From: a virus
Taxonomy: Duplodnaviria > Heunggongvirae > Uroviricota > Caudoviricetes
DNA length: 64,000 nt
Direction: 5' to 3' (one strand)
Virus record (IMG/VR): IMGVR_UViG_2737471993_000002
The position numbers and the translations under genes are program-made. This document shows, one piece after another, positions 42,574 to 46,013 of this stretch. The notes beneath the pieces are model-generated. The model worked only from the letters and a program-made list of their open reading frames with translations, made no database searches and was not told the origin of the DNA. Numbering within the stretch: position 1 is the first letter of the stretch; each line of letters opens with the position of its first letter.

Positions 42574-44682
42574 ATGTCTAAAAAACGTTCCATCAAAGAG
42601 GTTCAGGACTTCCGTGACAGTGTAAAACGAGTAGTCGCTCTCCTTTCAGGTAAAAACATCCCTGTTGCAGAACGAGGGGACGACGCTTATGTACGCTATA
42701 ACGATGATGGAGAGCCAATTCTCGTAAACATCCCATCAATCCCGGATAACGCAACACCGGCATTGATGAATGCTGTGCGCGGATTTCTCGATCATGAGGT
42801 TGCTCACATTTTGTTTACCGATATTCGTGTGTCCAACAAAATGAGAGAAAAAGGACGCGTTCCTTCCTGGTCGCTATGGAATGCCTTAGAAGACGTGTTC
42901 ATCGAGCGAAAAATGGGTCAGGTCTTTAACGGAACAAGACGTAATCTGATGGCAACTCAGCGCCTTATAATCGAAAAAGTCTTTAAACCAAAGGCTTCAG
43001 AGGCTATTGCTTATTGTGGCAAAGATCAGCGCGCGCTTTTTCTAAACTTCTTTCTCTGTCCGGTTGTAAGAGCCTGGGATGGCCAAGCACCGTTCGTAGA
43101 TTTCATGGATGAATATTGGCCTGTCATTGAGAAACCAATTTCATTATTAAAAGAACATGGTATCGATGTGGCCGTGCGTAACATGTCTTGCACCGAGGAT
43201 TGTGTAAAGGTGGCTGCGACCATAGCTAAGATCCTCAAAGACACTGAAAGTGAAAGCAAAGGTAAGGAGTCAGCTCCGGGAAAAACTTCCGATCCTTCAG
43301 ACGCTGACCAGACGGATGCCTCTGGAGAAAACAATGAAGACAACGAAGATCATGAGACACCCTCAGCGTTAGATAATCACAAATCTATCAAATCAGAATC
43401 ACACAGTAAGCACAAACATGATAATAACGACAGTGATGATTCAGATAATTCTGAATCATCAGAAACAATATTCGATGATACAGAAAATGATAAAGAGGTA
43501 TCAGATTCTGGTGCTTCTGATAACGCGGCGTCAGAATCATTTACCACTGACCACGAAAAAAGAAAATCGACAGAAGACGGCTCTTCAGACATTCCAACTC
43601 CGTCAAAAATGAGTCTGGAAGAGGCTTTAGAGGAGTTGGATAGCATGGAAGATGAAGTCGGAGGCATGACAGAAGATGCGCTATCCGAAACGATTAAAAG
43701 CGAGTTAACAGAAAGCTCGAAAAGCGAATACAGGCCATACAATCGCTCATACGACTTCATCGGCTCGATTGATCAGGCAGAAGCCCATATCAAACGGCTT
43801 ATTAAAACATTCTCCGATATTGATTTAGGTGGATATCCAATCAGCCGTTATCGCATCGTTCCTGAAGGCAACCAACTCTTCGACAAATATATTGAAAAGC
43901 ACCTTTCGTCAGGTGTTTCGTCGACGCTGGCAAAAGACCTGGAACGTGCAATAGCAAGCAGAAACAGAGTTCAGTTTATACCTGGCCAGCGTCGGGGGCG
44001 CATTCATGGTTCAAGTATCTACAGATTAACAATGAATGATGATCGCGTGTTTCGTAAAAAAGAAGAATCTAAAGCCGTTAACGCCTGTGTTCAACAAGTG
44101 ATTGATTTATCGGGTTCAATGAGTGGCGAAACGATAAAACTAGCTCTTGCAAGTGCATATACCATCGCCGATGCACTTGATCGAATAAATGTTCCCAACA
44201 TTATCACCGGCTTCACTACATTTGGTAGTCATATGGCGGCAGGAGAACTTAAGGCTGTCAAGTATGAGTTCTCTCGCTTTGAATCTTTAATGCTACCTAT
44301 CATCAAAAATTGGAATGAAAAGGTAAATTCTCGCGAAGTTCGCTCACGTATGGGGTGCGTAGGCTACACATTCCCACTTCTTAATAACGTGGATGGTGAA
44401 AGCATAGCCAGCCTTGCATCGTTATTTTCCGGTCGCATGGAGGACAGGAAGATCATGCTTGTTCTGAGTGATGGCGCGCCGTGGGCTGTTGGGAGAGGTT
44501 TTGACGCTCATTTGCGTTCAGTTGCGAAGCAAATTGAAACGCAGACTGATATTGATTTGATGGCAATTGGCATCATGACTGACGCACCGGAGAGATTTTA
44601 CTCAAATCATGCCCTGGTAACGAGCGTTGATAGTCTTGGTTCATCTGTAGTTACTGAACTATCTCGTATCATTTTAAAGTGA
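42574..44682 (+). CDS. cobT: CobT-like protein: N-terminal domain, acidic Asp/Glu/Ser-rich linker, C-terminal vWA domain
   Basis: MIDAS-type motif DLSGSMSG and later SDG in the C-terminal ~200 aa; ~130-aa highly acidic low-complexity region in the middle. Confidence 0.6.
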   Translation: MSKKRSIKEVQDFRDSVKRVVALLSGKNIPVAERGDDAYVRYNDDGEPILVNIPSIPDNATPALMNAVRGFLDHEVAHILFTDIRVSNKMREKGRVPSWSLWNALEDVFIERKMGQVFNGTRRNLMATQRLIIEKVFKPKASEAIAYCGKDQRALFLNFFLCPVVRAWDGQAPFVDFMDEYWPVIEKPISLLKEHGIDVAVRNMSCTEDCVKVAATIAKILKDTESESKGKESAPGKTSDPSDADQTDASGENNEDNEDHETPSALDNHKSIKSESHSKHKHDNNDSDDSDNSESSETIFDDTENDKEVSDSGASDNAASESFTTDHEKRKSTEDGSSDIPTPSKMSLEEALEELDSMEDEVGGMTEDALSETIKSELTESSKSEYRPYNRSYDFIGSIDQAEAHIKRLIKTFSDIDLGGYPISRYRIVPEGNQLFDKYIEKHLSSGVSSTLAKDLERAIASRNRVQFIPGQRRGRIHGSSIYRLTMNDDRVFRKKEESKAVNACVQQVIDLSGSMSGETIKLALASAYTIADALDRINVPNIITGFTTFGSHMAAGELKAVKYEFSRFESLMLPIIKNWNEKVNSREVRSRMGCVGYTFPLLNNVDGESIASLASLFSGRMEDRKIMLVLSDGAPWAVGRGFDAHLRSVAKQIETQTDIDLMAIGIMTDAPERFYSNHALVTSVDSLGSSVVTELSRIILK

Positions 44683-44777
44683 ACAAAACAGCCTTAACGA
44701 TAAGTAACCACTTACGATAGATAATGATATATTTATATAAGAAGTTGAACGCTCATTAGAAAACAAAGGAAAAACGC

Positions 44778-46013
44778 ATGACTACTACTGCACTGCAAAA
44801 TGAAAAAAATCCTTCTGATTACCTTGTTTGCAAGTGGTGCGGAAAATCATTTCACTATTTTAAGTCCCATGTAGCCAATGGTAATTGCGAGGGCATTCCT
44901 GAGTCAGTAAAAGATGCCGATCCTGACACCGTACTGAAAATGTACACAACACAGTTTCCAGATGAGCCAACGCTATCGAAAAAGGCACTTGATGCAATTC
45001 AAGCTAAACGTGCCGAGCAAAAAAGCGAAATGGCCAAATCATCTGGCGTGACCAGTAGCCCAGGCTACACAGGCACAGTTGAGTACAAGACAGATCTGGT
45101 CGCAGCTCACGAACTGCTAAATGTAACGGTGAAAGAACTCGGAACAAAACGTGGGACGCCGCTCATGGTTAGCGTCAACGTCAATACGCCGTTTCCAGAG
45201 TTCGTTCCAGAAGTGAAGAAGGGATACGTATATGGCGACTTCGAACTGATCAAAGACATTTTCATGATGCTTGAACTTGGCATACCTGGCTATTTGTGGG
45301 GTCATGCAGGAACAGGCAAATCTTCATTGCCTACACAACTATGTGCTTTGCTCAATCGTCCGTTAATCCGTGCCCAACATACAGCATCAATGGAAGAGGC
45401 TCATGTTACGGGACAAATTCTGGCGCGTGATGGCTCTACGTATTTCGAGCCTGGCTTGCTTGCGCTCGCAATGAAGCATGGCTGGGTTTACCTCGCGGAT
45501 GAATACGACTTTGCGTTTCCACAGATTCTTGGCGTGTATCAGCCAGTGCTGGAAGGTGAAGCGTTGGTCATCAAAGAGGCGACTCCAGAATGGCGTCGCA
45601 TTACTCCGCATGAACGGTTTGCTTTCATTGGCACTGGCAACACGAACGGATCTGGTGATGAAACCGGCTTGTACCAGGGTACAAACATCCAGAACGCCGC
45701 GAACTTTTCGCGTTTTGGCATCGTTTCGAATGTGAAATACATGAGCAAAGAGGCAGAGATCAACATGTTGATAAATGCCGGTATCGTGGATGAATACGCA
45801 GAAAAGATGGTTAAGTTTGCCGGTATCGTTCGCGATGGATACGAAGAACACCTTATCAGTCAGCCAATTGGCCCTCGTGAACTTTTGTTGTCGGCCAAGA
45901 TTGGAATGATGCGAGGCGACTTTGTGACAGGTATTGAGCGTTCTTTCATTAACAAACTCCCTTCAGCTTCTGCACAAGCGGCTCGTGAAGTTGTTCAAAA
46001 AATATTTGGTTAA
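44778..46013 (+). CDS. cobS: CobS-like MoxR-class AAA+ ATPase
   Basis: Walker A GHAGTGKSS, Walker B WVYLADEYD, 411 aa, immediately downstream of the vWA protein. Confidence 0.65.
   Translation: MTTTALQNEKNPSDYLVCKWCGKSFHYFKSHVANGNCEGIPESVKDADPDTVLKMYTTQFPDEPTLSKKALDAIQAKRAEQKSEMAKSSGVTSSPGYTGTVEYKTDLVAAHELLNVTVKELGTKRGTPLMVSVNVNTPFPEFVPEVKKGYVYGDFELIKDIFMMLELGIPGYLWGHAGTGKSSLPTQLCALLNRPLIRAQHTASMEEAHVTGQILARDGSTYFEPGLLALAMKHGWVYLADEYDFAFPQILGVYQPVLEGEALVIKEATPEWRRITPHERFAFIGTGNTNGSGDETGLYQGTNIQNAANFSRFGIVSNVKYMSKEAEINMLINAGIVDEYAEKMVKFAGIVRDGYEEHLISQPIGPRELLLSAKIGMMRGDFVTGIERSFINKLPSASAQAAREVVQKIFG

Follow-up and report, generated by a model that had tools for sequence, protein, structure and literature searches.

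Judged from its sequence, the gene pair at positions 42,574 to 46,013 of the analysed DNA (hereafter the window, 64,000 nucleotides) is a phage-type version of the CobS/CobT module, consisting of an ATPase and its adaptor. We consider it moderately probable that this pair acts as an early lytic MoxR-vWA remodeller with an attached zinc protease, and not as a cobalt chelatase in this element. Such pairs are widespread in phages and are routinely labelled as subunits of the vitamin-B12 'cobalt chelatase', a label that looks wrong here. The function of the pair can now be tested in E. coli.

The window was found to belong to an SSU5-like E. coli phage-plasmid, with 98.8% identity to phage Cyrano and 99.9% identity to the complete plasmid CP091393.1, which carries 120 annotated features. 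Both DnaE and a ribonucleotide reductase, annotated as nrdA/nrdB on CP091393.1, are encoded by the element. The two genes belong to the core of the SSU5-like group; the CobS-like protein was present at full length in 986 plasmid records, with per-genus counts matching those of dnaE (63 and 63 in Yersinia), and was also found in 494 phage records. Other candidate defence genes are also present in the window. The pair lies in the order integrase, repressor (minus strand), small ORF, CobT-like gene, CobS-like gene, ..., DnaE, and the relevant features are as follows.

41625..42011, minus strand: HTH repressor-like gene (context), diverging from the operon of the pair; its Cyrano homologue is CYRAN_45, 'putative repressor'
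42263..42475, plus strand: 70-aa ORF heading the operon, immediately before the CobT-like gene (phrog_2627, E 1.1e-39)
42574..44682, plus strand: CobT-like protein, 702 aa, with zincin domain, acidic linker, shaft/pre-vWA segment and vWA-MIDAS (phrog_1576, E 9.8e-301)
42574..43260, plus strand: N-terminal zincin (M48-like) domain, aa 1-229
42793..42807, plus strand: HEVAH (the HExxH motif, aa 74-78), within predicted helix 62-81
42880..42906, plus strand: NxxEDxxxE helix (N103, E106, D107, E111), candidate 'glutamate helix' with the third zinc ligand
43261..43728, plus strand: acidic Ser-rich linker, predicted to be disordered, aa 230-385
43927..44010, plus strand: pre-vWA segment LAKDLERAIASRNRVQFIPGQRRGRIHG, aa 452-479, aligned to CobT 373-413 (shaft region)
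44047..44679, plus strand: vWA domain, aa 492-702 (Pfam CobT_C), with MIDAS residues D511, S513, S515 (nt 44104-44118), T548 and D633
44778..46013, plus strand: CobS-like MoxR-class AAA+ ATPase, 411 aa (AAA_5; phrog_249, E 2e-106)
44778..45197, plus strand: aa 1-140 of the ATPase, an N-terminal extension that cellular CobS lacks, with C18-x2-C21-x3-H25-x5-H31
46016..46219, plus strand: 67-aa Cys-rich ORF, starting with GTG, that follows the ATPase gene and precedes dnaE (phrog_6337, E 3.2e-45)
46194..49712, plus strand: DnaE-type DNA polymerase III alpha, the operon's next large gene (context; Pfam PHP, DNA_pol3_alpha, finger, HHH_6)

The 702-aa and 411-aa ORFs were located exactly where the preliminary description had placed them. 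Each starts with ATG and has AAAGGA upstream, a Shine-Dalgarno sequence in the case of the CobT-like gene, and chance ORFs can be dismissed because both have strong database matches to large families. In the 702-aa protein, Pfam matches covered the CobT N-domain (aa 9-294, E 1.9e-27) and CobT_C/vWA (aa 492-701, E 1.7e-82). The C-terminal vWA/MIDAS domain described earlier was thus confirmed; its motif DLSGS occupies aa 511-515, and D511, S513, S515, T548 and D633 were all invariant in the family alignment. This domain aligned to the CobT vWA of 9uka_G and 21vt_A, and the family profile aligned to residues 313-618 of CobT 9uka_G, with the shaft region included. Within the pre-vWA segment, R458 and G475 were invariant, while K454, E457 and G471 were at least 90% conserved. 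The protein has the complete MIDAS vWA and preceding shaft segment of CobT, along with an N-domain of M48C-like fold. The function of the CobT 'shaft', which enters the CobS ring, is taken from the solved CobST structure (bioRxiv 10.64898/2026.07.21.739949).

The acidic linker had also been recognized, although at ~130 aa instead of the ~157 aa (about aa 229-385) found here. It consists of 49% D+E+S (19% S, 15% E, 15% D) with a net charge of -33, is nearly free of hydrophobic residues, and showed no conserved columns in the family alignment of 62 sequences. As the true CobT of the solved structure likewise carries a disordered linker of ~90 residues (bioRxiv 10.64898/2026.07.21.739949), the linker is not a phage-specific trait.

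What the earlier account of the 702-aa protein overlooked, while correct on the vWA domain and the linker, was the N-terminal ~230 aa. These make up a well-folded zincin-like domain of their own, in which an HExxH motif is conserved. The helix bearing HEVAH (62-81) follows predicted strands 31-53, as a zincin active-site helix should. D73, H74, E75 and H78 were invariant in the alignment of 62 diverse family members, and HExxH was present in 143 of 150 cluster representatives. Downstream, on predicted helix 99-117, E106, D107 and E111 were invariant and N103 was at least 90% conserved, so that the NxxEDxxxE helix is a candidate source of the third zinc ligand. None of the five proteins compared, three of them bona fide CobT and two CobT-like proteins of cells (from S. 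meliloti, Cereibacter, Pandoraea, Cupriavidus and Photobacterium), has HExxH; where CobT has RGxxDxxALRxxxxD, without HExxH, the window protein has RGFLDHEVAHILFTD. The conserved HExxH zincin domain is the clearest sequence difference from true CobT, and the domain looks catalytically competent.

A different use of this domain was considered, in which the pair is a chaperone for metal-cofactor insertion or maturation like NorQ/NorD, CoxD/CoxE or CbbQ/CbbO, and the zincin-like domain, like that of true CobT, would do no more than provide a docking scaffold; candidate clients would be the nrdA/nrdB reductase and the PHP domain of DnaE, both of which are encoded by the element. Cofactor maturation is a commonly documented MoxR-vWA role, the solved relatives include CbbQ and NorQ/NorD, and HExxH is lost in some family members, so the N-domain can work without catalysis. 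However, H74, E75, H78, E106, D107 and E111 are strictly invariant at ~30% overall identity, which is hard to reconcile with a pure scaffold. Moreover, no metalloenzyme is common to all lineages that carry the pair: cyanophages use gp43 where SSU5-like elements use DnaE, and phage ICP2, in which no ribonucleotide reductase is annotated, encodes a non-DnaE DNA polymerase that resembles that of Ralstonia phage RSB1. A cofactor chaperone was accordingly regarded as unlikely.

The 411-aa protein gave a single Pfam match, AAA_5 (aa 173-293, E 2.1e-15). The two motifs quoted with its earlier assignment to the MoxR-type AAA+ ATPases were located as Walker A (GHAGTGKSS, aa 175-183, nt 45300-45326) and Walker B (WVYLADEYD, aa 236-244, nt 45483-45509), both intact. 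Candidate motifs were found for sensor-1 (GTGNTN, 285-290), the Arg-finger (FSRFG, 310-314) and sensor-2 (IGPRE, 364-368). The vWA-MIDAS gene is adjacent on the same strand, with 95 nt between the two genes. The closest solved relative of the ATPase was CobS 9ujv_A (aa 141-411, E 1.8e-25), with midasin, CbbQ and NorQ next. Its N-terminal extension is shared with the homologues of phage nickie and the Rhizobium phages, with RHph_Y2_11 lacking the second Cys in the alignment. No Pfam match was obtained in this extension, and CobS_N was undetected in the N-terminal 145 aa even at E <= 10.

These relationships raise the question of whether the pair could be a genuine cobaltochelatase. It has been proposed for tailed viruses that viral CobST hijacks CobN (PMC8651126); applied here, the pair would be an auxiliary metabolic gene set that recruits the CobN of the host and boosts cobalamin for phage replication. 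The homology to true CobT and CobS is real, with 9uka_G and 9ujv_A as the best solved relatives and Pfam matches to CobT and CobT_C; none of the AAA+, shaft, vWA and MIDAS elements has been lost, and a crude tree placed the SSU5-type clade as sister to the true CobS/CobT clade. Nevertheless, both proteins failed the equivalog thresholds, in line with the doubt that the preliminary description had cast on the cobalamin annotation. Against NCBIfam TIGR01651 (CobT), the 702-aa protein scored 74.6 bits with a cut-off of 759.05, with only aa 442-697 aligning; against TIGR01650 (CobS), the ATPase scored 84.8 bits with a cut-off of 558.55. The two proteins thus reach roughly 10% and 15% of the respective cut-offs. 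The search for other cobalamin genes suggested at the outset found neither CobN nor any other cob/cbi gene among the 120 annotated features of CP091393.1. CobS_N (PF12556) was found in two cellular CobS-like proteins (3e-17 and 5e-14) but not in the window ATPase, and the gene order here is cobT-like followed by cobS-like, the reverse of the cobS to cobT order at five cellular loci. The conserved HExxH, absent from cellular CobT, also argues against a chelatase, as does the 49.7-kb phage ICP2, which has the pair with neither an annotated cob gene nor an annotated ribonucleotide reductase. To our knowledge, CobN is absent from E. coli, Shigella, Klebsiella, Salmonella, Yersinia pestis and Vibrio cholerae, and the whole corrin-ring pathway is missing in E. 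coli, both of which count against this role; in Salmonella and Klebsiella, it is the anaerobic CbiK route that operates. The situation in E. coli agrees with the finding that B12 synthesis engineered in this host needed heterologous cobN/S/T and the precursor pathway (PMC6249242). Considering that the scores fall far below the cut-offs, that the element carries neither CobN nor other cob genes, that the gene order is reversed and that CobS_N is missing, it was concluded that the pair is very unlikely to be a cobaltochelatase in this element; the hijacking of a host CobN seems remote indeed.

The genomic setting of the pair was compared among phages. The two genes were conserved side by side in every phage lineage examined, and in four unrelated lineages they are placed among replication genes. 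Three betaproteobacterial genomes or contigs showed the same layout as the window (integrase, HTH gene, small ORF, CobT-like, CobS-like, ..., DnaE), with gp32, exonuclease and RecA coming after. The order CobT-like, CobS-like, ..., DnaE was also found in Pseudomonas phage nickie and Rhizobium phage RHph_Y2_11. The podovirus ICP2 likewise carries the pair amid replication genes, on the strand opposite the structural genes, and T4-like cyanophages carry it between gp46/47 and gp45/44/62/43. Both HExxH and DxSGS were retained in the cyanophage 'peptidase' and in ICP2 gp41.

This placement bears on the proposal made for the pair of group 2.2 jumbo phages, for which a role in virion assembly was suggested by analogy with the MoxR-vWA system required for tail development in Acidianus two-tailed virus (PMC7824862). 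In that scenario, structural proteins would depend on the MoxR-vWA pair for folding or assembly and on the peptidase for processing. The architecture is the same as in that study, the viral precedent for MoxR-vWA pairs in morphogenesis exists, and near-silence in the lysogen, described below, marks lytic-cycle genes. However, in all lineages examined its position is in the replication/early region and not in a structural module: after the immunity region and before dnaE in the window, opposite the structural genes in ICP2, and between gp46/47 and gp45/44 in cyanophages, where cobS of P-SSM2 has served as an early-gene marker (PMC6628666). In addition, the structural modules of sipho-, podo- and myoviruses offer no obvious common client. 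The published proposal is thus at odds with the genomic context seen here, and we regard a function in virion assembly as doubtful.

In the Cyrano lysogen, transcripts of the pair reached 7.8 and 6.7 normalised units, compared with 10.1 for dnaE and 95.8 for the repressor CYRAN_45. Transcription of the pair was therefore more than ten-fold under that of the repressor and about as low as that of dnaE, and the near-silence of the pair identifies the two as lytic-cycle genes. The same values bear on the suggestion, raised in the preliminary description, that the pair is a conflict module. In such a reading, the plasmid-prophage would use it for defence, abortive infection or superinfection exclusion in a manner akin to the vWA-MoxR ternary systems. 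Predicted conflict systems do use vWA-MoxR cores (PMC7159879), and the candidate defence genes in the window would fit this suggestion. The low lysogen transcripts speak against it, and PADLOC returned no significant match, only a single weak one to DrmE (E 6.6e-4, aa 340-533, from the linker to the start of the vWA). No VMAP or effector partner was found in the neighbourhood in the window, Cyrano or the three betaproteobacterial regions; the operon neighbours are the 70-aa ORF, the 67-aa ORF and dnaE. The pair is also core in strictly lytic phages such as the T4-like cyanophages and ICP2. On these grounds the suggestion was unsupported, and a conflict module was judged distinctly improbable. 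The earlier interpretation as a whole was supported.

Regarding the two small neighbours, an ORF of 60-94 aa occupies the position of the 70-aa ORF in nickie, RHph_Y2_11, ICP2 and the three betaproteobacterial prophage-like regions; on comparison, homology among these ORFs could not be shown, and the 70-aa ORF may or may not belong to the module. The 67-aa ORF overlaps the start of dnaE by 26 nt and is unannotated in Cyrano and CP091393.1. As it was not conserved at its position in nickie, RHph_Y2_11, ICP2 or the three betaproteobacterial regions, its membership is uncertain.

For the preferred reading, a remodeller with an attached protease, the solved CobST structure suggests the following mechanism by analogy. 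The pair would be expressed from a lytic operon beside the immunity region, co-transcribed, as direction and order suggest, with the replisome genes. A hexameric ATPase ring would engage the shaft segment before the vWA domain, and the MIDAS face of this client-binding domain would capture an acidic motif on a client protein. The client would then be remodelled by ATP hydrolysis, while the HExxH domain, held on the acidic linker as a long tether, could cleave it. Since the pair shares its lytic-operon place, direction and order with replisome genes, we infer that the client is most likely a host or phage protein removed, processed or matured at the onset of phage DNA replication.

Compared with known systems, the window proteins are homologous throughout to CobS/CobT (EC 6.6.1.2; 9ujv, 9uka), with the MoxR-class AAA+, M48-like N-domain, acidic linker, shaft and vWA-MIDAS in common, and the ring/shaft coupling is probably the same. 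Unlike cellular CobT, the window protein has an intact HExxH; unlike cellular CobS, the ATPase lacks CobS_N and has an extra 140-aa N-terminal extension, and it has not kept the residues with which CobS contacts the shaft. A counterpart described before is the MoxR and metallopeptidase-vWA pair of group 2.2 jumbo phages (PMC7824862), to which the window pair corresponds (PHROG 1576/249); the HExxH-vWA plus MoxR architecture is thus known from earlier work on jumbo phages. The cyanophage pair has the same N-terminal HExxH, DxSGS vWA, adjacent CobS-like ATPase, gene order and replication-gene setting. Its proteins are, however, very divergent, scoring 66-74 bits with the family profile compared with >670 within the SSU5/nickie/Rhizobium-phage clade, and the CobT-like PHROGs differ (1576 in the window, 459 in cyanophages).

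RavA-ViaA, NorQ-NorD, CbbQ-CbbO and CoxD-CoxE likewise combine an AAA_5/MoxR-clade ATPase with a neighbouring vWA-MIDAS partner gene, and the shared general mechanism would be the ATP-driven remodelling of a vWA-held client. Their clients are respiratory or carbon-fixation enzymes, which are not encoded by these phages, and we know of no peptidase domain recorded in the vWA partners of RavA, NorQ, CbbQ and CoxD. The vWA-MoxR-VMAP systems (PMC7159879) have the MoxR and vWA core in common with the window pair, whereas the latter has no VMAP or effector and is a phage-encoded part of the lytic programme, with very little transcript in the lysogen. In Mg-chelatase, ChlI/ChlD (BchI/BchD) are similarly an AAA+ motor and a vWA-MIDAS adaptor with an acidic linker, which drive a large catalytic subunit; the required ChlH is absent here, and the N-terminal domain of ChlD is an AAA+-like module and not a zincin fold. 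Finally, compared with the M48 peptidases/gluzincins (Ste24/ZMPSTE24, HtpX, BepA), the window zincin has ~12% identity and no membrane segments, and this candidate protease is fused to a vWA domain and coupled to an AAA+ partner.

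Both open reading frames of the pair were located at exactly the coordinates given in the preliminary description, and the following features were assigned to them.

42574–44682 (+), CobT-like gene, 702 aa, ATG start, AAAGGA Shine-Dalgarno sequence upstream
aa 9–294 of the 702-aa protein, CobT N-domain (Pfam, E 1.9e-27)
aa 492–701 of the 702-aa protein, CobT_C/vWA domain (Pfam, E 1.7e-82)
aa 511–515 of the CobT-like protein, MIDAS motif DLSGS
44778–46013 (+), CobS-like gene, 411 aa, ATG start, AAAGGA Shine-Dalgarno sequence upstream
aa 173–293 of the 411-aa protein, AAA_5 MoxR-type module (Pfam, E 2.1e-15)
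aa 175–183 of the CobS-like ATPase, Walker A GHAGTGKSS
aa 236–244 of the CobS-like ATPase, Walker B WVYLADEYD

The C-terminal vWA/MIDAS domain and the MoxR-type AAA+ ATPase proposed earlier were recovered by these matches, and both quoted Walker motifs were found in the 411-aa protein, which also carries candidate sensor-1, Arg-finger and sensor-2 motifs. The acidic linker exists as described but was put too short at ~130 aa, as it spans about aa 229–385 (D+E+S = 49%, net charge −33); the genuine CobT whose structure was solved shares such a linker, which is not diagnostic. The earlier domain list was correct for the vWA domain and the linker but missed the N-terminal zincin domain. Single-sequence AlphaFold prediction of the full 702-aa protein gave a pLDDT of 35.5. 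In the N-terminal extension of the ATPase, a C-x2-C-x3-H-x5-H pattern (aa 18–31; window 44829–44870, +) may form a small zinc-binding motif. It is kept in Pseudomonas phage nickie, is one Cys short in Rhizobium phage RHph_Y2_11, and was absent from cellular CobS and from ICP2 and cyanophage CobS on sequence comparison.

Among 1.84 billion cluster representatives searched, 5,156 relatives had E ≤ 1e-3, of which 524 reached E ≤ 1e-30, and the best 150 all scored >249 bits, far above true CobT. HExxH was present in 143 of these 150 best representatives, three of the seven exceptions being fragments without the N-terminus. Across 62 diverse members (27–61% identity), D73, H74, E75, H78, E106, D107, E111 and the MIDAS residues were invariant. 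The motif is also kept, as HEVGH in the cyanophage 'peptidase', HECYH in ICP2 gp41 and HEVAH in the Rhizobium phage protein. A small minority, among them phage nickie (DSEISK) and four representatives, has lost it wholly; therefore, catalysis is not indispensable in every lineage. A phmmer search of the N-domain alone against PDB sequences returned only noise (HLA chains, E about 0.03), and the link to CobT_N is drawn from the Pfam profile and the fold. The comparison below agrees with the M48C-like fold reported for CobT_N in the structural paper on true CobST (bioRxiv 10.64898/2026.07.21.739949).

Table. N-domain comparison with known proteins.
ZMPSTE24 and Ste24p (M48A): 6.1
BepA: 5.4
M32 carboxypeptidases (3dwc, 1k9x): 5.3, 4.9
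BlaR1: 5.2
M48 family peptidase (3c37): 5.1
Minigluzincins (projannalysin, proabylysin, selecase): 4.9, 4.5, 4.3
ArdC: 4.9
Spartan: 4.4

Features of the solved complex that couple CobT to the ATPase ring were also traced. The family profile aligns to CobT residues 313–618 of the solved structure and covers Q373–R413, the segment that inserts as a 'shaft' into the CobS ring (bioRxiv 10.64898/2026.07.21.739949). The counterpart in the window protein is aa ~452–479, in which R458 and G475 are invariant. If the numbering of the S. meliloti protein and that of the solved chain differ by six residues, R69 and D73, which precede HExxH, correspond to CobT R76 and D80, and these form salt bridges with the CobS small domain (CobST structural paper). 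At the positions of the shaft-touching CobS residues S102, D110 and R147, the window ATPase has E, I and F; therefore, any such shaft contact must have co-evolved.

The best solved relatives of the pair are true CobT (9uka_G, E 4e-17, vWA region only) and true CobS (9ujv_A, E 1.8e-25), which favors a chelatase reading, and the pair is genuinely homologous to the motor of the aerobic chelatase. The preliminary description had doubted a cobalamin role and suggested looking for other pathway genes. This doubt was upheld, as the NCBIfam equivalog scores were 74.6 for CobT against a cut-off of 759 and 84.8 for CobS against 558.55, and neither cobN nor any other cob/cbi gene was found on the complete 111-kb plasmid CP091393.1, which is 99.9% identical here. 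The ribonucleotide reductase genes of this plasmid are annotated nrdA/nrdB; this is a class Ia reductase, which needs no B12. E. coli is not known to have CobN or the corrin-ring pathway, and the Klebsiella, Salmonella, Yersinia (Y. pestis) and Vibrio cholerae hosts are not known to have CobN either. Therefore, the published proposal that viral CobST hijacks host CobN and raises cobalamin (PMC8651126) should not apply in E. coli, Klebsiella, Yersinia and Vibrio cholerae hosts. Consistent with the E. coli gene content, B12 engineering in this species needed imported cobN/S/T and a precursor pathway (PMC6249242). NJ trees of nine sequences, built by a distance method, offer only a hint on the relation to true CobST.

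The surroundings of the pair in the window were as follows.

40527–41630, integrase, first in window order
41625–42011 (−), HTH repressor
250-nt divergent region between the HTH repressor and the 70-aa ORF
42263–42475 (+), upstream small ORF, 70 aa
46194–49712, dnaE, then UvsY, gp32-like SSB, exonuclease and RecA homologues

After the divergent region come the 70-aa ORF and the pair (CobT-like gene first), followed by a 67-aa Cys-rich ORF and dnaE. Promoter and terminator scans around the operon did not rise above shuffled expectation, and no promoter is claimed. In three betaproteobacterial genomes or contigs (L093–L095), the order is integrase, HTH gene (opposite strand), small ORF, CobT-like, CobS-like, sigma-70-like, DnaE, gp32, exonuclease and RecA; these regions look like integrated prophages because the integrase adjoins uvrC-pgsA in each. 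Phage nickie has helicase, primase, ligase, CobT-like, CobS-like and dnaE in succession, and the pair of phage RHph_Y2_11 also lies among replication genes. In the 49.7-kb Vibrio podovirus ICP2, the pair is on the primase/helicase/DNA polymerase arm, opposite the structural genes, and in the T4-like cyanophages P-SSM4 and S-PM2 it lies between gp46/47 and gp45/44/62/43. Therefore, the same gene order and kind of module recur in four lineages with three different replicative polymerases. No third component was conserved across the examined lineages, which have neither a ribonucleotide reductase nor a single polymerase type in common. A ribonucleotide reductase as universal client was ruled out, as ICP2 has the pair and no annotated reductase.

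Several smaller genes accompany the pair. The sigma-70-like gene (Sigma70_r2; phrog_3741) is immediately downstream of the CobS-like gene in L093–L095 and also in phage RHph_Y2_11, and the DnaE of L093–L095 has a UDG (uracil-DNA glycosylase) Pfam domain at its C-terminus. An ORF of 60–94 aa always directly precedes the CobT-like gene in seven highly divergent elements (the window, L093:9639-9848, L094:9703-9885, L095:9677-9865, L009:6691-6876, L010:6707-6937 and L011:5695-5979); across these seven loci, no sequence homology was detectable and no PHROG was shared. The 67-aa ORF (46016–46219, +) has a GTG start, four Cys and one His (C5, C19-x2-C22, C28-H29), matches phrog_6337 (E 3.2e-45), overlaps the dnaE start by 26 nt, and carries no annotation in the related phage Cyrano or in CP091393.1.

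Published expression data agree with the replication-module context. In the LF82 lysogen, the Cyrano homologues of the pair reached 7.8 and 6.7 normalised units, dnaE 10.1, the repressor 95.8 and toxin-antitoxin genes 141–294, and the small upstream ORF reached 20 units versus about 7 for the pair (PMC9928086 S1 Table). Moreover, cobS is an early-gene marker in cyanophage P-SSM2 (PMC6628666). A 'previously unrecognized' pair of MoxR and metallopeptidase-vWA proteins in group 2.2 jumbo phages was proposed to act in virion assembly or processing (PMC7824862). The biochemistry of that proposal agrees with our analysis, but we disagree on the biological role because context and timing indicate an early/replication programme. 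The conflict-module option of the preliminary description, that is, a defence role, found no support, since the transcripts of the pair are low in the lysogen and the sole PADLOC match was a weak one to DrmE (E 6.6e-4), which runs from the low-complexity linker into the vWA start and was discarded as compositionally suspect.

Identity to the window is 95–99.9% in 194 plasmids from E. coli, Shigella and E. albertii; these are SSU5-like phage-plasmids. The CobS-like gene is full-length in 986 plasmid records, occurs in >1,200 plasmid records in all, and was found in 494 phage records, the majority from cyanophages. Its plasmid counts per genus follow those of dnaE, and the pair is a set of core genes of these phage-plasmids in E. 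coli, Klebsiella, Salmonella and Y. pestis.

Table. Plasmid records per genus (CobS-like by tblastn; dnaE by megablast).
Klebsiella: CobS-like 366, dnaE 313
Escherichia: CobS-like 241, dnaE 221
Enterobacter: CobS-like 98, dnaE 90
Yersinia: CobS-like 63, dnaE 63
Salmonella: CobS-like 51, dnaE 49

In a structure search of viral proteins, fusions of the N-domain fold to vWA turned up in siphoviruses, podoviruses, haloarchaeal tailed viruses and actinophages, and an IMG/VR scan with the family alignment matched nearly only SSU5-like relatives, adding no diversity. Plasmid records label the pair 'cobalamin biosynthesis protein CobT', 'porphyrin biosynthesis protein' or 'AAA family ATPase'. In Cyrano (OV696614.1, 12001–15440), the labels are 'dimethylbenzimidazole phosphoribosyltransferase' and 'cobalamin synthetase', which we take to be those of unrelated Salmonella proteins also named CobT and CobS; because the gene names are in double use, this annotation is an error by name transfer. 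In Xanthomonas phage JGB6, a weak vWA-region match (7001–7978, 25% identity, E 9e-17) underlies several short CDS labelled DNA polymerase III alpha or PHP domain fragments. It may be an assembly or annotation artefact, since many genes of this record are split and it seems strongly fragmented.

Other loci of the window were also noted. A 567-aa KAP-family P-loop NTPase (26433–28136, +; Pfam E 1.6e-5) lies in a low-GC island (GC 0.34 vs about 0.46) and hits PDC-S49, a candidate defence family of PADLOC (E 1.8e-22). The phage-plasmid has probably acquired it as a defence gene. Four tRNA genes (37840–38397, +; Asn-GTT, Tyr-GTA, Thr-TGT, Ser-TGA) are present, with only Asn, Thr and Ser annotated in Cyrano. 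Between this cluster and a glutaredoxin gene, a 444-aa ORF (38593–39927, −; GC 0.375) has a hydrophobic N-terminus and a weak, below-cut-off AbiC-like match (E 3.6e-4); its position holds different genes in Cyrano and CP091393.1, and the locus is therefore variable. A 199-aa ORF (50561–51160, −) matches PADLOC candidate PDC-M06B (E 1.6e-32) and no Pfam family; a HicB/HicA antitoxin-toxin pair is annotated at about the same relative position in Cyrano, just downstream of dnaE.

On the best-supported reading, the pair would be a MoxR-vWA remodeller of the phage type to which a probably active zinc peptidase is attached. It would be made in the lytic cycle alongside the replisome, and its target would be a client protein, not a tetrapyrrole. 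Taking the solved CobST structure together with the residues that are conserved, we infer a mechanism in which the MoxR ring would grip the shaft, the vWA-MIDAS adaptor would hold the client, and the client may be remodelled at the expense of ATP and cleaved by the zincin tethered through the acidic linker. A cofactor-maturation chaperone is a reasonable alternative. The literature searched contained no experiments on a phage CobS/CobT-like protein. It is conceivable, if rather unlikely, that tailed-phage 'CobS/CobT' in general, including the core cobS of T4-like cyanophages, have no B12 role and form an AAA+ protease-like machine of unusual design, in which the MoxR ring pulls on the client-holding adaptor and the tethered zincin cuts the client. 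This machine would be needed early, when phage DNA replication begins, for the removal or processing of a host protein, and cellular CobST would be a catalytically dead offshoot of this protease-remodeller family, re-used to drive CobN.

The pair is a known object rather than a new kind of system, as its genes stand in hundreds of records and its architecture has been published. The present analysis adds that the pair heads a lytic operon beside the repressor and that an E. coli phage-plasmid offers a CobN-free, genetically tractable test system for viral 'cobS/cobT'. SSU5-like elements are ciprofloxacin-inducible and the relative PhiR41_1 is recorded on E. coli K-12 MG1655; therefore, the role of this old, widespread module can be settled. 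Viral cobS/cobT are among the 'auxiliary metabolic genes' most often reported in viromes and are routinely read as cobalamin boosting. This reading is undercut by a core lytic-programme pair in CobN-less hosts and by a peptidase motif that cellular CobT does not have; if true, many virome-based metabolic inferences would need revising.

The comparison with cellular systems adds a contrast between the conserved phage-type HExxH and the examined cellular CobT, which lack it. The phage-type active site reads RGFLDHEVAHILFTD, compared with ARGLGDSMALRKACHD, ARGTADAFALRRRYHD and VRGAGDAAALQHAWHD in three bona fide CobT, and HExxH is also missing in two further cellular CobT-like proteins. Moreover, both cellular CobS tested with Pfam (Cupriavidus and Photobacterium) carry a CobS_N domain, whereas in the window ATPase Pfam detected none and a 140-aa N-terminal extension stands instead. 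The gene order also differs: cellular cobaltochelatase loci (Sinorhizobium, Cereibacter, Pandoraea, Cupriavidus and Photobacterium) have cobS followed by cobT, the opposite of the order in the window.
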